From an uncultured archaeon (lineage in GTDB: Archaea > Nanohalarchaeota > Nanosalinia > Nanosalinales > Nanosalinaceae): 30,225 bases of DNA. The translations under genes and the position numbers were made by a program. Each line of letters starts with the position of its first letter. Positions within the stretch are counted from its first letter, which is position 1. Below are positions 589 to 24,020 of this stretch, in pieces. The stretch is taken from positions 1 through 30,225 of the forward strand of contig CAYQYU010000012.1 of the NCBI GenBank assembly GCA_964421955.1. Reading direction: 5' to 3'. The notes below the pieces were generated by a model that saw only the letters and a program-made list of their open reading frames with translations, searched no databases and was not told where the DNA came from.

Positions 589-716
589 GCACTTCCAACT
601 ACACGGCACCAGCTTGAGCTCTAACATTGAGCTTTCTGCGCAAGCAGATGGCTCATCGCAGGAAATCTTTGATTTCCGAGCTCGGTGGATACGCTGTGGT
701 CGGACCTGTTATACGT

Positions 717-5984: not shown

Positions 5985-6479
5985 AGGAGGCGGAGTGGCT
6001 GTCCCCGCTGGCGTTCCGTATCGCCGCATCTCTTGCGAGAAACGGCGGACGCATCCTGACGGATGCTCGACCCCATAGAACCTTGCGGTTCGCTGAGTGA
6101 GGAAAGTCCCGACACCTCGACGGGCAATAAGTTGCCTTTCGTAGAGAAGATCCTTGATCTTCGAAACGTGGCAGGTGCAAGACCTGTGGACCGAGAGGTC
6201 TCAGAGACACGCCTTAACTCGTTTAAAAACGAGGTAGGCGGCTCATTGAGCAGCAGAAACGACACGTCTCCTGTAATGGCCAGGATCACGGTAACGGCGT
6301 CAAAGCCAGCGTCGTGTGGAGCCAGTTCAGGAGGATCGGTGAAACGTGGCTCAGACACGGGGTGCAAGCCGAAGAGCGCAAGCACGCATTTCGAAGAAAT
6401 GCTGGTTTCCAGCAAATCTTCGATTTGCGTCGAGTCAAATGCGGCCATAGAAACAGAATCGGGCTTACTCCCGCCACCT
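5985..6479 (+). ncRNA. rnpB: RNase P RNA (about 495 nt)
   Basis: GAGGAAAGTCCCGA (6099-6112) pairs in P4 with ACAGAATCGGGCTTA (6453-6467); P1 AGGAGGCGGAGT/ACTCCCGCCACCT; P2 TGGCTGT/GCGGCCA; P5 CACCTCG/CGGGGTG; conserved CAGAAAC and TGAAAC. Confidence 0.93.
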
Positions 6480-9455: not shown

Positions 9456-11369
9456 ATGTCGGTTTTATCACGGGTCAAAAAAGCATTCTCCTCGAAGGAG
9501 ATTCAGGAAGACTTTGATTACGAGCCAAGTGAAAGTAGCCACTTCCAGTTCAACGAAGATCCGGGCGTCAAGATCACGACGGAAGCGGAAACAGTTGACG
9601 AGATCGACGTAAAGTATCCGCTTATCAAGCCCTTCGCGAACGCACACATCAAGTGGAACAAAGAAGAGAAAGAGCTGATGTACTACGTCGAAGAACCTAG
9701 CCTGAGTGACGAGGACGAAGAGCTGTACAGGAAGATAAAGGAAAACCTGTCCGAGAAGCTCGATGTCTCCCTGAGCTCAATGCAGGAACGGGAGAAGGTC
9801 ATCGGCTACCTGGAGAAGAAGATAGATGAGCTCCTGCTTGAACTCGGCCTTGAGCTTTCCGACCAGCAGCACGATAAGATAATGTACTTCATCTACCGCG
9901 ACTTTGTCGGTCTCGGAAAGATCGAGCCTTTAATGCACGACCCTTACATAGAGGACCTGGGATGTGACGGCACCGACATACCTATCTTTGCTGTCCACTC
10001 CGAATTCGGCTCCATAAAGTCAGACGTGAGGTTCGAGGACCAGGAAGACCTGAAGAACCTCGTGGTCAAGCTGGCGGAGCGAGCAGGAAAATACGTCTCG
10101 TACGCAAATCCGCTGCTCGACGGTGCTTTACCTGATGGTTCACGTGTCAACGCATCGCTCACTGAGGACGTTACATCGCACGGACCGACTTTTTCGATAA
10201 GAAAGTTCCAGGAGGAGCCGTTCTCATCCGTCGACCTGATGGATCTCGGAACCGTGTCCGCCGGTTTAATGGCGTACATGTGGCTCCTGATGGAGTACCA
10301 GCAGTCCGTGCTGATCTGCGGTGGAACGGCCACAGGTAAGACAACGTTCCTGAACTCCGCGGTATCTTTCATACCTCCAGAGGACAAGATCGTCTCGATT
10401 GAAGACACGCGTGAACTCAGGCTTCCGCACGAGAACTGGATTCCGTCTGTCACGAGAACCATGTTTGGTACAGATGATAAATCCGATGTCGACATGAACC
10501 AGCTGCTGAAAGAATCCTTCAGGGAGAACCCTGACTACGTGGTGGTCGGTGAGGTCCGTGGTGAAGAGGCCTCGGTGCTCTTCCAGGGAATGTCCTCGGG
10601 ACATCCCTCACTCGGTACGATGCACGCCTCGGGGCCGAACGATGTTGTGAAGCGGCTTGTGACACCCCCGATCTCGCTTTCCGCCGCACTTGTAGAATCT
10701 CTCGATGTCATCGTCCAGATGACCCACGCAAAGGGAGTCGAGGAGAGCGCCCGCCGTGTTAGAGCTGTGCACGAGGTACAGAAGGTCATGGGAGAATCAC
10801 AGAGCGCAAGGACCAACGAGGCATTCACATGGACCGCCAAAGACGACTCATACAAGATGCGTGGAGAACCCTACCTCTTTGACCAGATCAGCAGCGATTA
10901 CGGCGTTTCAAAGGACAACCTCAAGGAGGAGCATGAAAACAGGACTAGATTACTCGAATGGCTCCAGAAGAAAGGAGTCAAGGACTTCGACAGCGTGTCC
11001 AAGATAATTGCGGAATACTACAAGAGCAAGGAAGACATCCTGAAAATGGTGAACTCGGAGGACGGGGAATCCACTCTAAACGAGATAATCGAGGCAGAGC
11101 AGAAAGTCGATATTACAAGGCCCGATCAACTGGACAATGCAGTGAGGGCCGAGAGAGAATCAGGAGGCCTCGAATCCGAGATTGAAAACATGGACGCAGG
11201 TCAGGCACTTGAGGAGAAAATCAGGGAGGAAGAAAATCCGGTCGAAGAAATTGAAAAAAGGCTGAAAGACGAACAGAGAAAGGTTGACAGCACAAGAGAT
11301 GCGGACAGGGATAAGGACCCTTTTGAGGACTCTAAAGAAAACGTCGATGCAAACCCGTTCGAGGCCTGA
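9456..11369 (+). CDS. Type IV pilus / type II-IV secretion ATPase (PilB/FlaI/VirB11 family)
   Basis: Walker A GGTATGKTT, SIEDTREL, RENPDYVVVGEVRG, TMHA; long acidic C-terminal tail. Confidence 0.95.
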   Translation: MSVLSRVKKAFSSKEIQEDFDYEPSESSHFQFNEDPGVKITTEAETVDEIDVKYPLIKPFANAHIKWNKEEKELMYYVEEPSLSDEDEELYRKIKENLSEKLDVSLSSMQEREKVIGYLEKKIDELLLELGLELSDQQHDKIMYFIYRDFVGLGKIEPLMHDPYIEDLGCDGTDIPIFAVHSEFGSIKSDVRFEDQEDLKNLVVKLAERAGKYVSYANPLLDGALPDGSRVNASLTEDVTSHGPTFSIRKFQEEPFSSVDLMDLGTVSAGLMAYMWLLMEYQQSVLICGGTATGKTTFLNSAVSFIPPEDKIVSIEDTRELRLPHENWIPSVTRTMFGTDDKSDVDMNQLLKESFRENPDYVVVGEVRGEEASVLFQGMSSGHPSLGTMHASGPNDVVKRLVTPPISLSAALVESLDVIVQMTHAKGVEESARRVRAVHEVQKVMGESQSARTNEAFTWTAKDDSYKMRGEPYLFDQISSDYGVSKDNLKEEHENRTRLLEWLQKKGVKDFDSVSKIIAEYYKSKEDILKMVNSEDGESTLNEIIEAEQKVDITRPDQLDNAVRAERESGGLESEIENMDAGQALEEKIREEENPVEEIEKRLKDEQRKVDSTRDADRDKDPFEDSKENVDANPFEA

Positions 11370-11375
11370 AACAAA

Positions 11376-12014
11376 ATGCAGCGAATAAAATCCGGAATCC
11401 ACAACTTTGACCGTCTCCTGGGCGGCGGCATACCTGACAGAGAGCTCATACTGGTCAAGGGAGAGCCTGGATGCGGAAAATCCAACCTTGGAATGGAATA
11501 CCTTTACAGGGGCGCCCAGAAAGGAGAGAACGGTCTCTACGTTTCCTTCCAGGATACTGAGCCAGAGATACTCCGGACCACGACATTCGACTGGGACTTC
11601 GGGGAGATGGTCGAGGAAGACACCATCAACATAACCAAGTTCGACCCCTACAGGTACGAGCAGATCGCCAACATGCTTCGTTCAACTGTGAAGGAGAACG
11701 ACGCCACGCGCGTGGTCCTGGACCCTATAACCGATCTCGATCTGTATATTGATTCACGGAAGGACCAGAGGAAGAATCTCCTGAAGATCAAAGAGGAGTT
11801 GAAAGACCTTGGGTGCACAACAATTCTTGTTGCGGAGAAGGAAGAGGCCACAGAGCTGGAGGAGGAGATTGCCGACGGGATTGTGGAGCTTGAACTTCTG
11901 CGGAAAGAGGGCCAGGTCGAACGCCATATACTGGTGAAGAAGCTGAAAGGTTCAGACTATAACCACAGCGTCCATAGCTACATAATCAACAGCGACGGAA
12001 TAAAGATACAATGA
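11376..12014 (+). CDS. KaiC/RAD55-like single-domain RecA-family ATPase
   Basis: RIKSGIHNFDRLLGGGIP, Walker A GEPGCGKS, RVVLD, VKKLKGS. Confidence 0.9.
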   Translation: MQRIKSGIHNFDRLLGGGIPDRELILVKGEPGCGKSNLGMEYLYRGAQKGENGLYVSFQDTEPEILRTTTFDWDFGEMVEEDTINITKFDPYRYEQIANMLRSTVKENDATRVVLDPITDLDLYIDSRKDQRKNLLKIKEELKDLGCTTILVAEKEEATELEEEIADGIVELELLRKEGQVERHILVKKLKGSDYNHSVHSYIINSDGIKIQ

Positions 12015-12118
12015 CGCAAACCAGAGATTTGCTCAGAGCGAAGACCGGGTGGTCTTCTCTAAGCAGAAAACGCTACCTGTTTTCGAGAGACGAAAACACA
12101 TGCGGTGTTTTCGAATGA
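12010..12118 (+). repeat. Four-hairpin insert flanked by AATGA direct repeats, open as a 35-aa mini-ORF (12011-12118)
   Basis: Hairpins at 12016-12032, 12040-12057, 12066-12084 and 12091-12113; AATGA at 12010 and 12114. Confidence 0.75.
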
Positions 12119-13041
12119 GTGAAAGCGATCCTTTCCAGAGTTCTTTCAGGGCCAGGATCAAGAGGGCGATGCAGACAGATAATACCGCTGCAGCAGCCAA
12201 CGCTCTTTTTGGACCCACGGTTGACAGCCACAGCGAGTATTTCGAGGACCTGAAGACCGACATGAAGAAGGCGGGCATGGACGTGCTCTTCAGAACCTAC
12301 GTTTCGAAAATGTTCCTTTACACCATCGTGACCTTCATCCTCGCTATGGTCTCGGGAATTTTCTACACATTCATCAACTCTCCCGCTCCACAGACTGCCT
12401 TGAGACTGATAGTTGGCATGCCCTTCGCGCTCTCGATTCTCGTCCTGGGCGGGATGTACATGTACCCATCACAGGTCGCGAAGAGGAGGGAGAAAAATAT
12501 AGATGAGAACCTGCCGTTTGCGCTGAACCATCTGAGCGCGATCGCGACCTCGGGTATACCGCCAAGCTCGATGTTCCAGCTCCTGCAGGGCTTCAAGGAG
12601 TATGAGGGAATTGCGCAGGAGGCCGGAGAAATTTCCCGCAGAGTCAATGTCTTCGGTGAAGACCTCACCACCGCATTAAGGGAAGTGGCGGAGCGGTCTC
12701 CGAGCGAGGACTGGACCGAAGTGCTGTACGGCATCCTTTCAACAGTTGAAACCGGGGGAAATCTCGACGACTTCCTGAAGGAGCAGGCCGACGAGGCGCT
12801 TTTCGACTACAAGATGGAGCGCGAAAGAGAAATCGAGCGGCTCAGCACTTACGCGTCGTTCTACACCGCAATCCTGATAGCTGCACCGGTTTTCCTGGTA
12901 GTTATACTCGCGGTCATGAACCTGCTTGGCGGCCAGCTAATGGGCTTCGCCATCAGGGATTTGATGTGGCTTGGCGTCCACATAATCATACCTGTCATAA
13001 ACATCCTGTTCATAATATTCCTGACAATCAAGGTGGACTAG
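12115..13041 (+). CDS. Type II secretion system F family (TadC/PilC/FlaJ-like) membrane platform protein
   Basis: IDENLPFALNHLSAIATSG, FGEDLTTAL, ETGGNL, several TMs. ATG 12115 (GGTG 7 nt upstream) preferred over GTG 12049. Confidence 0.92.
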   Translation: MSESDPFQSSFRARIKRAMQTDNTAAAANALFGPTVDSHSEYFEDLKTDMKKAGMDVLFRTYVSKMFLYTIVTFILAMVSGIFYTFINSPAPQTALRLIVGMPFALSILVLGGMYMYPSQVAKRREKNIDENLPFALNHLSAIATSGIPPSSMFQLLQGFKEYEGIAQEAGEISRRVNVFGEDLTTALREVAERSPSEDWTEVLYGILSTVETGGNLDDFLKEQADEALFDYKMEREREIERLSTYASFYTAILIAAPVFLVVILAVMNLLGGQLMGFAIRDLMWLGVHIIIPVINILFIIFLTIKVD

Positions 13042-13123
13042 AATCGAGCTAATAAGCAAAAAATACAGGCTGAAACTCAAGAACCTCTGGAGGAAGTATG
13101 AAGACCTGATTGTACTTGTCGCG

Positions 13124-14257
13124 ATGGCGGCGATCCTGGGAGTTCTGGTCTCGGCGGCCAACACATGGTACTACGAACAGACCACCCAGAAGTTCGTGCT
13201 AGATGAACCCCAGACCATCGGGAACGAGCGGGACGCAACCTTCACATTCCATCTCCAGGAGCCACAGCTGGCGTCGGAAACAACCCTTGAATTCACCGTC
13301 GAAGACATCGAGTCCACCACCAATATCTACCTGCAGGTAAACGGTCAGGATGTCACCCCGATATCTCCAGGAGAGAACATAGTAAAGCTCTCCAGCAACA
13401 GGCTCAAGAATAGTAACACTGTTAGACTGTACAAGAAAAACATCGGATTCACTGACCAGAAGCTGGTTGAGGCCAGGGTAACATCCAACACCAGCCTGCA
13501 ACAGCTAATTTTCGTCCTGATAAACTTCTCCTCGCTCCTGCTGGTATTCCTGCCGATAGGATACGTAAAATATACAGGATATCTGCGGAGAAAAGAGATG
13601 GAAGAACAGTTCCCCACCTTCCTGAGAGATATTGTCCAGGGCACCCGGGCCGGCATGTCACTGCCACAGGCGATCCAGAACACCGAATCCGCAAACTACG
13701 GTGCTCTGAACCCGCACATAAGGAAAATGTCAGCACAGATCGAATGGGGTGTGCCGTTCGACAAGGTTCTCGACAGCTTCGGCAGCACCATAGGAACACC
13801 CATGGTCAGGAGAAGCGTTGACACCATAATACAGGCCTACACCTCTGGAGGAGATATTGAAGATGTCCTCGAATCAGTAGGGGAGAACATAAGGTCGATC
13901 AAGAAGCTGAAGGAGGAGCGGCAGAGCCAGCTCTACGGAGAGATGATCACGGGTTACGTGGTCTACTTCATATTCATCGGTATACTGATCGCGCTCCAGA
14001 CCTACCTGCTTCCGAACCTTGCCGCGGCGTCCGAGTCGCTAGGGGGCGGGCTCGACATACTCGGCAGCAGTGGCGGAGGAAATCTCCAGGAGAACATCAA
14101 CCTCTACGAGGTCTGGTTCTCTAGACTTGTCTACATCCAGGCCATATTTTCCGGTATCATAATCGGAAAGCTCTCCGAGGGTCAGCTACAGGCAGGACTA
14201 AAACACTCCGCGATACTTTTCGCAGTAGGGTACCTCTCGGTGACCTTCTTCCTCTAG
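13124..14257 (+). CDS. Second T2SS-F (TadB/TadC-like) protein with an extra extracytoplasmic domain; the true start may be upstream (about 13043)
   Basis: MEEQFPTFLRDI..RAGMSL, IEWGVPF, SGGDIEDVL, GKLSEG..AGLKH. Confidence 0.9.
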   Translation: MAAILGVLVSAANTWYYEQTTQKFVLDEPQTIGNERDATFTFHLQEPQLASETTLEFTVEDIESTTNIYLQVNGQDVTPISPGENIVKLSSNRLKNSNTVRLYKKNIGFTDQKLVEARVTSNTSLQQLIFVLINFSSLLLVFLPIGYVKYTGYLRRKEMEEQFPTFLRDIVQGTRAGMSLPQAIQNTESANYGALNPHIRKMSAQIEWGVPFDKVLDSFGSTIGTPMVRRSVDTIIQAYTSGGDIEDVLESVGENIRSIKKLKEERQSQLYGEMITGYVVYFIFIGILIALQTYLLPNLAAASESLGGGLDILGSSGGGNLQENINLYEVWFSRLVYIQAIFSGIIIGKLSEGQLQAGLKHSAILFAVGYLSVTFFL

Positions 14258-21200: not shown

Positions 21201-22331
21201 CTAGTCGAGGAACTCTTCGTTCTCGATTTTCGTCGGCAGGTACTCGTTGGCCACGAACTCGAGTGACTGCGAGGCGAGGGCCTGCTGCTCGACCCTTACG
21301 CCCATGTCGAGCATCTTCTGGAGCTGGTCCTGCCACTGCTTGGTCTGCATCCACTCGTACTCCATGACGTCTCTCGCCCTTTTGTAGTCCTTCGTCGGGC
21401 CGCCGTTATCTTCTGGCTTGCCCTTCAGGTTCTCGGTGACGTGGTGGAGGTCGTACTCGTCGATGTCCTCCATTGTCATGCCTACAAGTCGTGCGTCCGG
21501 AGTTGCGAGACGGTCGGACTGGAACGCCAGCGACATTGATCCCGACTTCAGCACTGAGTAGATGTAGTAACCCCATGGGTCGCCGTCCGTGAAGACGTAG
21601 ACAGGTAGATCAAGGCGCTCGTGCATGATGTTGATCAGCCTTCTCGCACCTCTCGCTGGCTGTCCTTTTGTACCGACGATGATCGCGTTGTGCTCCTTGT
21701 GGAAATCTTCTTCAACCAGCCTGTTGACCATCGCGTTGGTCTCCACGACAAGGATAAAATCGGCGTCGCATTCCACGAACTCATAGTGGTCGACGATCGA
21801 CGGGATGTTGAGCCCAGAAGTTCCCATCTCCATGCAGTCGATCTCGTCTCCGGAGTCGTTGATGACGACAGGTCCAAACAGCGATCCTTTCGCCTCCGCG
21901 ATCAGGTGGAGGTCTTCACGGATCGCGCCCGTGGCGGTTTCAATATCGACGATGACAGGATCAGATTCGTCCTGGTCCTCGAAAGTGTTCTCGTCGAGTC
22001 CCGGGACAGTATGCTTCAGCTGGTAGTACAGCTCTCTGATCGATGCTGTACGCCCTTCTTCCACGAACTGCTTTGCCTTCGATGCAACAAGCATCGTCTG
22101 CATGAACTTCCTAGCGTGAGATATGTTGAGGAACTTCCTCGACGAGTAGTTGTCCCCCAGCATCAGCCGTTCCTCGTCTTCGTCGTACTCTACATTCGAC
22201 TGGGAGCGGACCTTGGTCTCTATCTCAAGGTTATCCGACTCCGGATCCTCTAGCTGCTTCCTTATCTTCCTTCCCAGGTTTTTCAGCCTGTCAACTGTCT
22301 GCTCATCGTTCTCAAAGTCTTTCTTTGGCAC
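21201..22331 (-). CDS. top6A: DNA topoisomerase VI subunit A
   Basis: IRELYY (catalytic Tyr), FEDQDESD, ILVVET, KGQP, FTDGDPWG, EQQAL. Confidence 0.97.
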   Translation of the reverse strand: MPKKDFENDEQTVDRLKNLGRKIRKQLEDPESDNLEIETKVRSQSNVEYDEDEERLMLGDNYSSRKFLNISHARKFMQTMLVASKAKQFVEEGRTASIRELYYQLKHTVPGLDENTFEDQDESDPVIVDIETATGAIREDLHLIAEAKGSLFGPVVINDSGDEIDCMEMGTSGLNIPSIVDHYEFVECDADFILVVETNAMVNRLVEEDFHKEHNAIIVGTKGQPARGARRLINIMHERLDLPVYVFTDGDPWGYYIYSVLKSGSMSLAFQSDRLATPDARLVGMTMEDIDEYDLHHVTENLKGKPEDNGGPTKDYKRARDVMEYEWMQTKQWQDQLQKMLDMGVRVEQQALASQSLEFVANEYLPTKIENEEFLD

Positions 22332-22407
22332 TCAGAAATCACCTCTGTGATTTTCTGTGTCAAGAAGATCTCTGATCTTCGTCTGCTTCTTCATTTTTCA
22401 ATCACCT
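22332..22407 (-). repeat. Two-hairpin insert with a 20-aa mini-ORF (22394-22332), bounded by AGGTGATT direct repeats
   Basis: Hairpins at 22364-22380 and 22336-22353; AATCACCT on + at 22337 and 22400. Confidence 0.7.
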
Positions 22408-23992
22408 AAAGTTGCTCCGGGTTGTAGTCGGCTTCGACCATTGCCTGGATTTTCTGCTCGATTTCTTCAGGATCGCCCTCTTCCGCGAGTGAAGCAATCG
22501 CTGGCCCCATCTCCTTGGCGTAGGCGGTGAGCTTCCTTTTCTTCTTCTCCTGGATCTCTGCTCTCTCCTTCCGGCCAATGTAACGGCCGAGTTTTCTACC
22601 CGCCTCCTGTAGGGCGAGCTTCATCTCTTTCCGGATATCGTCGTAGTTAGCGATCGCCTCCTTTCCTTCTGACGTGAAAGGCACCCACACAGAGGCCATG
22701 TGGACCAGGATGTATACAGGCCCCTGAGGCCGATCGCCGGTCTGGGAGAGGTTGTAACGGTTCCAGGAGACTTCTTCTATAGCTTTTGTCGTGACACATG
22801 ACGACTTCTTGTAGAGCAGCGGTACCTTGTTCGCGAACCTCAGCTCGCTGTAGCTTCCGTCCTCCTCGATGTCTCCGCCGTAGGCCAGCCCGACTTCCAC
22901 GACGAAAGGGTTGCCCTTGTAGACCGTGGGCTTCCTCGTGATCGCGGTCGTGAACTCTGGGTTCAGCTCTTTCTTCAGTCCTTTGAGTATCAAATCTTCT
23001 CCAATCGGTGAGAGGCAGTCTGTCGGCGGCGACTGCAGTTTTACCCGCTGCGCCGCGTCAAGCAGCTGCTCGATCTCGTCCTTGCTCAGTGTGTTCGGCC
23101 TCCTGCCCGTGTCAACATCTGCCTCGTCACACACTTCTTCCGCAGAGGTTCTGCCCACGCGGGTGAACTCGCTCTGGAGGAAGCTGGAAATAGTCCTGGC
23201 ATCTGTGTCTTCTATCATCCTCATCATGATCCCGAGTTCAACGCCGTGTGGATGAGGCTTGATCTCCTTAGGCTTCTCGGGGAGATCCCTAGAAACGCGA
23301 GGGTACTCGATCTTGTTGCCGTCCGGCTCCCTCAGGACTACACGGGCGTAAGGATTCATGATCGCCGTGTGCTTCAGGTAGTTCCGGACCGAGTGATGGC
23401 CGCTCGTGTATTTGGCCTCTATATCCATCTCGATCGTGGTTCCGTGGTCAAAGTAGTAGTCTTTGTCTCCCGGGAACTCATCGCTGTCCTCGTCAACTAT
23501 CTCATCCTCGATAATCTCTGGCTCGTTCGCCTCAGTATCGATACGGACAACGAACTTGTGGCACGGCTCGCCCTCCTGCTTGGACCAGACTGTTACTGGT
23601 TCTCCTGTCGTGAGCTGTGCGTACATCGCGCTCGCACTTATCCCGATCCCCTGCTGTCCACGACTCTGTTGAAGCTTGTGGAACTTCGAACCGTAGAGAA
23701 GCTTTCCGAATACCTTCGGAATGTTCTCCCGGGAGAGCCCGATCGCGTTGTCCCTGATCTCGACCCGGCATTTCTCTTCTCCAATCTCGTCGATAAGCAC
23801 GTGGATCTCTGGAAGAATCTCTTCTTCCTCACATGCGTCCAGAGAGTTGTCGACGGCCTCCTTGACGACCGTGATTATTGATTTCTGGGGATTTTCGAAA
23901 CCTAGAAGATGCCTGTTTTTCTCGAAGAACTCCGCCACCGAAATCTCACGGTGATCGGACTCCTCAAGTTCTTGTTCTACTCCGTTTGGCAT
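22406..23992 (-). CDS. top6B: DNA topoisomerase VI subunit B
   Basis: ISVAEFFEKN, KEAVDNSLDA, SRGQQGIG, HGT, RFANKVPL, VPFTSEGKEAI. Start is ATG 23992 or GTG 24007. Confidence 0.97.
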   Translation of the reverse strand: MPNGVEQELEESDHREISVAEFFEKNRHLLGFENPQKSIITVVKEAVDNSLDACEEEEILPEIHVLIDEIGEEKCRVEIRDNAIGLSRENIPKVFGKLLYGSKFHKLQQSRGQQGIGISASAMYAQLTTGEPVTVWSKQEGEPCHKFVVRIDTEANEPEIIEDEIVDEDSDEFPGDKDYYFDHGTTIEMDIEAKYTSGHHSVRNYLKHTAIMNPYARVVLREPDGNKIEYPRVSRDLPEKPKEIKPHPHGVELGIMMRMIEDTDARTISSFLQSEFTRVGRTSAEEVCDEADVDTGRRPNTLSKDEIEQLLDAAQRVKLQSPPTDCLSPIGEDLILKGLKKELNPEFTTAITRKPTVYKGNPFVVEVGLAYGGDIEEDGSYSELRFANKVPLLYKKSSCVTTKAIEEVSWNRYNLSQTGDRPQGPVYILVHMASVWVPFTSEGKEAIANYDDIRKEMKLALQEAGRKLGRYIGRKERAEIQEKKKRKLTAYAKEMGPAIASLAEEGDPEEIEQKIQAMVEADYNPEQL

Positions 23993-24020
23993 AGTATTGT
24001 TTTTCACCTTGACAGTATTT

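Follow-up and report, generated by a model that had tools for sequence, protein, structure and literature searches.

The window analysed here, a 30,225-nt stretch of contig CAYQYU010000012.1 (assembly GCA_964421955.1) from an uncultured archaeon of the Nanosalinaceae, contains a 104-nt insert at the junction of a KaiC-like ATPase gene and a T2SSF/TadC-like membrane protein gene. As judged by sequence comparison, this insert is two tandem units (104 = 48 + 56 nt), fused in frame, of a cassette of about 50-56 nt that is dispersed, intercistronic and specific to this small-genome archaeal phylum. The architecture of the cassette, its recurrence, the covariation of its hairpins, the 3-nt phasing of its mini-open reading frame (mini-ORF) and its empty sites were directly observed. 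We consider it reasonably probable, from these sequence data, that the mini-ORF is translated and that the insert serves as a relay, a natural "bicistronic design" keeping translational coupling across the spacer. The features of the junction are as follows.

11376..12014, + strand: KaiC-like ATPase gene, 212 aa (PF06745, E 4e-46), whose TGA stop at 12012-14 overlaps the mini-ORF ATG
12011..12118, + strand: mini-ORF of 35 codons plus stop, with an ATGA overlap at each end (from ORF reading; peptide MTQTRDLLRAKTGWSSLSRKRYLFSRDENTCGVFE); putative relay cistron
12011..12061, + strand: cassette unit 1, with ATGAC, hairpin A1 (12016-32) and hairpin B1 (12040-57; Shine-Dalgarno (SD)-like GGGTG in loop and 3' arm); its own 3' start/stop end is lost
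12062..12117, + strand: cassette unit 2, with hairpin A2 (12065-85), hairpin B2 (12091-12113), alternative pairing at 12079-97 and the end GAATG(A); 55 bits with the covariance model R1 (see below), for which this copy was a seed
12104..12107, + strand: GGTG, a partial SD motif, 7 nt before ATG 12115, at the loop/3'-arm edge of hairpin B2
12115..13041, + strand: T2SSF/TadC-like membrane protein gene, 308 aa (PF00482); the N-termini of 13 orthologues align at ATG 12115

Reading of the sequence and minimum free energy folding placed four hairpins in the insert, at 12016-32 (6/7 bp), 12040-57 and 12065-85 (7 bp each) and 12091-12113 (9 bp); as an alternative, 12079-97 can pair. The mini-ORF is open from 12011 to 12118; its ATG overlaps the KaiC-like stop codon, its TGA at 12116-18 overlaps the TadC-like ATG, and GGTG lies 7 nt 5' of that ATG. 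The four hairpins, the mini-ORF with its overlaps and the GGTG had been described in an earlier, sequence-only reading of the window and were confirmed. The folding was only modestly unusual (-36.1 kcal/mol, z -2.38; 4 of 200 shuffles were as good), and what raises the insert above chance is comparison across genomes, not folding energy. An exact look-up of the 35-aa and 20-aa mini-ORF peptides in a collection of 15 billion proteins found neither, and Rfam 15 gave nothing relevant over 11800-12400 at E≤10. We considered, and rejected, that the insert arose from the 3' end of KaiC by tandem duplication and divergence (VNTDGV ~ INSDGI); alignment to the upstream 104 or 53 nt gave z values of -1.8 to 0.65, no better than shuffles. 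Among contigs of two DNA runs from one study, a single contig covers the junction: it spans 11751-12597 without differences and contains no variant form, but it probably comes from the source sample and is therefore not independent. A scan of metagenomes for closer relatives with the KaiC-like protein gave 193 pattern matches, none of which was confirmed.

The KaiC-like protein was searched in 40 relatives, and the junction was read at 13 same-family loci (KaiC identity 54-79%). At 12 of these 13 junctions the genes meet in a direct overlap, ca/aa/ga-ATGAG(T/C), followed by the conserved TadC N-terminus (MSSNPF-like). Such an overlap is what the sequence-only reading had suggested looking for in relatives; excising the insert and one ATGA, as it had done, gives ATACAATGAGT, which matches these actual empty sites. 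Loci of other families (n = 12, leaving out L024 and L032-L034; KaiC 37-42% by tblastn) have short spacers only, with L027 ambiguous. Because empty junctions prevail among the orthologous loci, the insert is derived and was placed at an ancestral ATGA overlap, in agreement with that reading. A conserved N-terminal extension of TadC, which it had named as one observation that would speak against an insertion, was not found: the N-terminus, MS(S/E)(N/D)PF, aligns to ATG 12115 at all 14 loci, and the thirteenth junction, that of G016, has the TadC frame closed upstream. The proposed target-site duplication was not supported. The flanking AATGA repeat is not beyond chance, with 4 of its 5 bases forced by the two stop/start overlaps, and it needs no duplication event because the ends of the cassettes, ATG(A) on one side and RTGA or TAATG on the other, are intrinsic to them and do not depend on the flank. 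The repeat at the G016 insert is ATGAC, compared to AATGA in the window. The idea of a single anonymous insertion was likewise replaced by that of two tandem units of a multi-copy cassette family.

To describe this family, we searched the 70 genomes available for the order (in the genome collection used, phylum, class and order coincide) by BLAST with the 108-nt sequence, which gave matches at E≤1 in 47 genomes (best E 2.2e-6). The recurrent matches fall on the 3' half of the insert, at query positions 70-108 or 82-108, in many genomes; in all nine of the first nine contexts they lie just 5' of a start codon, within a small ORF (e.g. MITKIKDFLDHAENTGGVFE) whose stop overlaps that start. Within the source genome itself (G000; 0.92 Mb, 27 contigs) BLAST of the insert gave only partial matches of 14-27 nt, so the family becomes visible only via relatives and a structure model. 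The covariance model, R1, was built from an alignment (A1) of ten copies, including the window copy, and has 54 positions and two hairpins. At E≤0.1 it gave 417 matches in 41 of 50 family genomes; G000 has 19 of these, and the highest number in one genome is 37. Run on G000 alone it gave 32 matches at E≤1. At E≤1e-3, matches were found in 43 of the 70 phylum genomes (families f1 36/49, f4 6/8, f3 0/10, f2 0/1 and f5 0/1). Near-identical 63-nt copies precede different genes in different genera (L1, L30 and S7), and tandem and expanded forms exist. Rfam 15 gave nothing relevant at E≤1 on four strong copies, and a literature search, which did not cover supplementary files, found no description of such a cassette. 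Two further weak R1 matches in the window, at 6387-6431 (-) and 632-680 (-) with E values of 0.08 and 0.85, look like hairpin A alone (GACGCAAATCGAAGATTTGCTGG).

For the counts that follow, we examined 90 copies: 10 from G000 and the best-scoring 80 of 140 listed foreign copies, a choice that favours well-kept copies before highly expressed genes. The copies are related to one another, so they cannot be counted as independent events; simple ORF rules, and no gene finder, were used to set gene starts and upstream genes. The cassette has a constant order: SD1, 5-8 nt, ATG, hairpin A, a 6-14-nt spacer, hairpin B, GA and then the next gene's start codon. Its own start codon sits on or just 3' of the stop of the upstream gene, usually behind an SD motif. 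Hairpin A has the consensus GAAAATC-NNN-GATTTTC and hairpin B the consensus GAAAACAC-loop-GTGTTTTC, in which (G)GAGGTG spans the loop and the 3' arm, about 7 nt before the start of the next gene. The mini-ORF stop overlaps or abuts this start as RTGA, TAATG or TGA-ATG. The 16S gene was not found in the G000 assembly, and three relatives were used instead; its 3' end reads GGATCACCTCCA in all three. A table in PMC10783764 gives the SD of Nanohaloarchaea as GGAGGUGA. The anti-SD agrees with the SD of the cassette.

Both hairpins showed strong covariation. In 86 model-aligned copies, fitted to R1 and hence aligned in a way that favours the structure, 97.1% of cells were paired and 12 of the 15 pairs were changed on both sides. 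There were 96 double-changed cells compared to 13.9 in shuffles (none of 500 reached 96) and at most 12 when partners were slid by 1-3 columns. Copies of G000 itself have plain compensatory stems, such as GAAGATC/GATCTTC and AAAGATCACC/GGTGATCTTT.

The placement of the copies relative to genes was examined in the same set. A downstream ORF of at least 45 codons was abutted in sense by 86 of the 90 copies (60 ATG, 26 GTG), and in 71 of the 90 a mini-ORF of 13-22 codons (69 ATG, 2 GTG) ended at that start. The stop/start arrangement of the 71 was RTGA in 38, TAATG in 24 and a TGA directly before the start in 6, with others fewer. An SD-like motif precedes the mini-ORF start in 63 of the 71, and 64 have a co-directional upstream ORF ending within 45 nt, 31 of them in an overlap (16 ATGA-type and 15 TAATG-type). 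Distances from the mini-ORF ATG to the gene start cluster at 50, 53, 56, 59, 62 and 65 nt, with a mode of 56, and 61 of the 71 mini-ORFs are in the 2 mod 3 phase. Counting all ATGs near the 5' end regardless of frame, the three phases held 66, 11 and 9 (n = 86). The window insert (104 nt) and the G016 insert (56 nt) share the 2 mod 3 phase. Hairpin A is read in all three frames among the copies (KIKDF, ENQRFS, RKSKIF), with the spacer length compensating. The frame is kept and the peptide is not conserved. Pfam assigned 40 of 76 downstream N-termini to ribosomal-protein families, an approximately ten-fold enrichment, 6 to RNase PH (exosome) and 7 to RNA-polymerase subunits or Spt4; 10 had no match, and the remainder include aminoacyl-tRNA synthetases, GatB/E, an EF-Tu-type GTPase domain, proteasome alpha, ATP synthase, thioredoxin and DnaJ. 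One ribosomal-protein cluster of G000 (C3:59614-73497) contains at least six model matches, for example before the S8 gene and its neighbours, and the cassette is a regular feature of the ribosomal-protein operons in that cluster.

The two units of the window insert were assigned to this family separately. Unit 1 aligns to the cassette at the topoisomerase VI B-A junction (Top6B-Top6A) of G022 (ATGACGCAAATCAGAGATTTGCTC...GGTGGTCTTTGAATG) with a z of 9.8 (0 of 2000 shuffles as high), and by BLAST it is 95-96% identical over 22-24 nt to G022 and G002; its covariance-model match is weak (12013-44, 14 bits). Unit 2 is matched over 12080-12118, at E 1.4e-6, by an independent, sequence-only hidden Markov model (HMM) built from 80 copies of other genomes. 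The filled junction of G016, which has the most similar proteins (KaiC 79%, TadC 74%), carries a 56-nt insert at the same place with an open ATGA-to-ATGA mini-ORF (MTDRIRELFVPVNTDGVTV) and, as in the window, GGTG 7 nt before the TadC start. This insert resembles the family, with a median z of 3.9 against the 80 copies (shuffled control 0.3) and a z of 5.0 against L048. Both of its hairpins are lost and R1 does not match it, yet the ORF, the modal 56-nt phase and the GGTG at -7 are kept. We do not claim that the inserts of the window and G016 stem from an insertion in a common ancestor.

A second cassette lies elsewhere in the window, at a junction with the following features.

22406-24007, - strand: topoisomerase VI subunit B gene (Pfam), upstream of the cassette
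22329..22394, - strand: second window cassette (R1, 37.6 bits), with a 20-codon mini-ORF, MKKQTKIRDLLDTENHRGDF, whose TGA abuts the GTG start of subunit A
21201-22331, - strand: topoisomerase VI subunit A gene (Pfam), downstream of the cassette

The independent HMM also matches this copy, at 22330-22383 (-) with E 2.3e-10. The Top6B-Top6A junction was used as an orthologous test not selected by ORF content, in 21 family genomes including G000. The spacer was 13-22 nt with a plain SD in 11 of the 21 genomes and 58-167 nt in the other 10. Within one genus, the junction of G023 is filled (58 nt) and that of G007 is empty (16 nt). In 9 of the 10 long spacers a mini-ORF starts just past the stop codon of Top6B and terminates no more than 4 nt from the start of Top6A; in the tenth, reading of the sequence places its end 5 nt before the start. 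Several long spacers have no R1 match, and since these bear the ORF nonetheless, the bridging ORF is kept even where the cassette sequence has drifted. Presence or absence is thus polymorphic at both orthologous sites, with 2 of 14 filled at KaiC-TadC and 10 of 21 at Top6B-Top6A.

Outside the phylum, the search covered the exact two-hairpin pattern only, in 596 Gb of sequence, where about 0.02 chance matches were expected (uniform-base estimate). The pattern was found in 107 stretches. Among the 80 listed, 51 are titled as other lineages: Woesearchaeota, Pacearchaeota or Nanoarchaeia (21), Methanosarcinales (12), Halobacteria (11), bacterial metagenome-assembled genomes (MAGs; 5) and Methanobacterium (2). 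The other titles are Nanohaloarchaea, Nanohalobium or Nanosalina (23), untyped archaeon (5) and Asbonarchaeaceae (1). In the 29 outside copies read, the hairpin B loop has no SD, except in the Asbonarchaeaceae-titled L234, where the loop contains AAGGTG and a start codon follows 5 nt downstream. Four contigs of one Aminicenantes-titled MAG (L166, L195, L205 and L244) have the double hairpin no further than about 100 nt from a contig end, like an assembly-breaking repeat.

In Haloferax prahovense, the double hairpin lies inside a TnpB gene adjoining a Y1 transposase gene. Haloarchaeal TnpB genes carry the double hairpin in frame (L181:4902-6233, - strand). Of 13 close TnpB homologues compared in a protein alignment (A4), 3 have the corresponding 18-aa segment SRKIEDFPEVENTSRFRN and 10, one of them a 96%-identical protein, do not; the DNA flanks of the insertion are GGATTCAC and GGAATTCAC. 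This in-frame presence and absence shows that the hairpin module is elsewhere a frame-tolerant insertion. A second, different 18-aa insertion (LPERLSLSESRKTKSSGR) occurs at another site in 4 of the 13 homologues, and the TnpB insertions suggest repeated frame-tolerant events. In G000, hairpin A modules (GAAAATC-NNN-GATTTTC) are contained in both of two anticodon-loop introns predicted by ARAGORN, of 60 and 101 nt, in tRNA-Lys(CTT) (C1:103601-103736) and tRNA-Met(CAT) (C6:15456-15630). More hairpin-A matches adjoin tRNA-like sequence at C3:73442 of the same genome. The origin of the cassette was probably a translation-tolerant double-hairpin element, one that other archaea have as well.

How the cassette may work can be proposed from its layout. 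PMC12548453 describes two models of coupling: in one the upstream ribosome unfolds the RNA, in the other the same ribosome reinitiates. In Haloferax volcanii, according to PMC10666635, the last 15 nt of the upstream gene suffice for reinitiation, a gap of 13-14 nt halves it and a gap of 22-23 nt abolishes it. By that measure an untranslated 104-nt spacer would uncouple TadC from KaiC. Ribosomes finishing the KaiC-like gene at the ATGA would re-start on the mini-ORF, open the hairpins in the course of its translation, stop at the TadC-like start codon, where the SD is in the right position, and reinitiate there. A mini-cistron with an SD 7 nt 5' of the TadC start would in this way put two short-range hand-overs in place of one long gap, leave the coupling of the ancestral ATGA overlap unbroken, and serve both coupling models. 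The sequence-only reading had already proposed such a relay for the insert; the idea fits an architecture that recurs in dozens of copies, and sequence statistics point to termination-reinitiation as its likely mode.

Several observations weigh against the relay. Our script found no intact mini-ORF in 19 of the 90 copies; some of these were missed by its +/-9-nt window and some are true cases, with an in-frame stop or no start codon. Stop-free frames arise partly from the consensus (of 86 copies, 82 are open in frame +1, 66 in frame +2, 35 in the frame of the gene and 34-61 in the reverse frames), so that openness alone is weak evidence; it is the exact overlaps and the phasing that carry the argument. 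The window copy was among the seeds of R1, and the match of the independent HMM extends only over 12080-12118. The SD in the window is only GGTG at the edge of a 9-bp stem; its spacing is right, but the family consensus (G)GAGGTG is stronger. The junctions also function without a cassette (12 of 13 at KaiC-TadC, 11 of 21 at Top6), and it may be that the relay does no more than make a selfish insertion neutral. Lastly, two-hairpin copies without SD or ORF occur beside and inside tRNA genes and in other phyla, so the hairpin module has a life independent of translation.

In an alternative reading, the cassette is a selfish, translation-tolerant palindromic mobile element, like a Rickettsia palindromic element or a miniature inverted-repeat transposable element (MITE), and would spread into tRNA genes and coding regions as well as gene junctions. 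Being stop-free would then make it harmless, the downstream gene would use its own SD and no relay would be needed. Such an element would account for the patchiness at orthologous sites (including G023 filled vs G007 empty), the near-identical 63-nt copies before L1, L30 and S7 in different genera, the tandem and expanded forms, the double hairpin in other lineages, the in-frame TnpB insertion in 3 of 13 haloarchaeal homologues and the several frames that are stop-free by consensus. No linked transposase was found, however: IS200-type Y1 transposase (PF01797), the one transposase family searched, occurs in 4 of the 70 phylum genomes, not including G000, compared to 43 of 70 for the cassette, and a link between the two was therefore rejected. 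Terminal inverted repeats were not seen on reading the copies, only the two internal palindromes, although no dedicated repeat search was made. Placement and orientation are extremely biased, with 86 of 90 copies abutting a start codon in sense, and the roughly ten-fold enrichment is before ribosomal-protein genes, where disruption should be least tolerated. The compensatory changes in situ and the 3-nt phasing indicate continuing selection on structure and frame, and hairpin B contains an SD in the copies of the phylum but not in the outside copies read (except L234). We regard a purely selfish element as the main rival of the relay, but an unlikely one. The relay has a broader version, which we offer tentatively although it is a plausible one: a translation-transparent double-hairpin element that occurs in several archaeal phyla (in frame in Halobacteria TnpB, within tRNA introns, and between genes in records titled Woesearchaeota or Methanosarcinales) may have been domesticated in Nanohaloarchaeota-like genomes as a portable coupler, a natural equivalent of a bicistronic design. 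It would be placed before ribosomal-protein, exosome, RNA-polymerase and complex-subunit genes so that their translation is standardised and coupled, the pilus copy being a recent tandem example.

The hairpins could instead be a signal at the RNA level (an intercistronic hairpin for processing or stability, an attenuator, a terminator or a site bound by a protein) that sets the ratio of upstream to downstream product, with the open frame secondary. Signals of this type are known from bacterial REP-type hairpins in operons. Here, both hairpins covary strongly, each 3' arm has a TTTT run, the unit 2 segments 12065-85, 12079-97 and 12091-12113 can pair alternately in the manner of an attenuator, and hairpin A occurs alone inside predicted tRNA introns and near tRNA genes. 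A signal of this kind leaves the 3-nt phasing, the 5' start codon with its SD and the exact stop/start overlaps unexplained, and in G016 it is the hairpins that have decayed and the ORF that is kept. There is also no Rfam family and no terminator-like long U tract, and codons that could act in sensing are not evident in the variable peptides. As the whole explanation it appears quite improbable, but a processing or termination role could coexist with a relay or with a selfish element. It is very doubtful indeed that the mini-ORF encodes a functional micro-protein, or that the region is an N-terminal extension of TadC from GTG 12049. The TadC frame is also open through the insert and many copies end alike, in ...ENTxGVFE, but this common ending is the translation of hairpin B itself. 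The peptides vary freely, with hairpin A used in three frames, and those of the window are absent from the 15-billion-protein collection; conservation of the TadC N-terminus starts at ATG 12115 in all 14 loci, with the upstream frame closed in G016. The translated relay is the reading we favour.

The insert lies in a type IV pilus-like operon identified from the ORF list and Pfam, with a T2SSE ATPase, the KaiC-like ATPase, two T2SSF/TadC-like genes and archaeal pilin-like ORFs. Its other placed genes are the following.

9456-11369: T2SSE ATPase gene
13124-14257: second T2SSF/TadC-like gene

The 82-nt spacer between the two T2SSF genes (13042-13123) has no cassette match and no obvious bridging ORF, unlike the bridged junction upstream. 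Top6A of G000 is nearest to G023, G007 and G002 (91-94%) and is 81% identical to that of G016, whereas the KaiC-like and TadC-like proteins are nearest to G016. Because the Top6A similarity favours the other three genomes, the pilus operon may have a history distinct from the rest of the window.

If ribosomes traverse these mini-cistrons, the cassette would be a natural, modular answer to a problem that bicistronic designs solve synthetically, and, for archaea, the first repeated "coupler" element to be described. This would account for the presence, in very small genomes, of structured spacers of 50-170 nt that are tolerated in ribosomal-protein and complex-subunit operons with no loss of stoichiometric coupling. 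As a defined 56-nt part, it fits the existing Haloferax two-reporter system and bears on the question of RNA unfolding versus reinitiation. The wider spread of the double hairpin, in TnpB, tRNA introns and other phyla, suggests that archaea have a class of very short, frame-tolerant repeats that has gone unrecognised. For annotation, hundreds of cistrons of 13-35 codons go uncalled, and neighbouring start codons can be mis-set.

Compared to termination-reinitiation coupling in archaea and bacteria, as described in PMC6728339, PMC10666635 and PMC12548453, the cassette has the same -4/-1 overlaps at both ends and an SD 5' of the restart codon. It is likewise found between genes for complex subunits (KaiC-like/TadC, Top6B/A) and in ribosomal-protein operons. 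It differs in that a mini-cistron of 13-35 codons is interposed across 50-170 nt, a distance that abolished reinitiation in H. volcanii by the values quoted above, and in that the relay is a repeated structured cassette rather than a gene pair. The original synthetic bicistronic design (BCD) was reportedly published by Mutalik et al. in 2013. A BCD, as described in PMC5995908, has the same parts: SD1, a short leader cistron, SD2 in the 3' end of the leader, and a leader stop over the gene start. The cassette, in contrast, is natural and archaeal, exists in hundreds of copies per family, has two conserved hairpins in the leader and lies between native operon genes.

Intercistronic palindromes of bacteria, of the REP/BIME, ERIC and Correia types, are untranslated and act on mRNA stability or termination, and REPs have a dedicated RAYT transposase. 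The cassettes resemble them as dispersed hairpin repeats between co-transcribed genes; unlike for REPs, just 4 of the phylum's 70 genomes have a Y1 transposase. Leader-peptide attenuators of the trpL and ermCL type combine a short leader ORF, alternative hairpins and a downstream SD held in a stem. The cassette shares the short leader ORF, the alternative pairing (in unit 2) and the SD in a stem, but it has no regulatory codon runs or arrest motifs and no long U tract, its leader stop overlaps the start codon, and it serves dozens of unrelated genes. Rickettsia palindromic elements, as reviewed in PMC10969869, are about 150 bp long, lie inside ORFs and encode a conserved peptide. Like these and other translated MITE-like repeats, the cassette is short, palindromic, open in frame and tolerated in translated sequence. 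It differs from the elements so described in being about 50 nt long, in forming mostly a separate mini-cistron with an SD at a gene junction, and in encoding a peptide that is not conserved.

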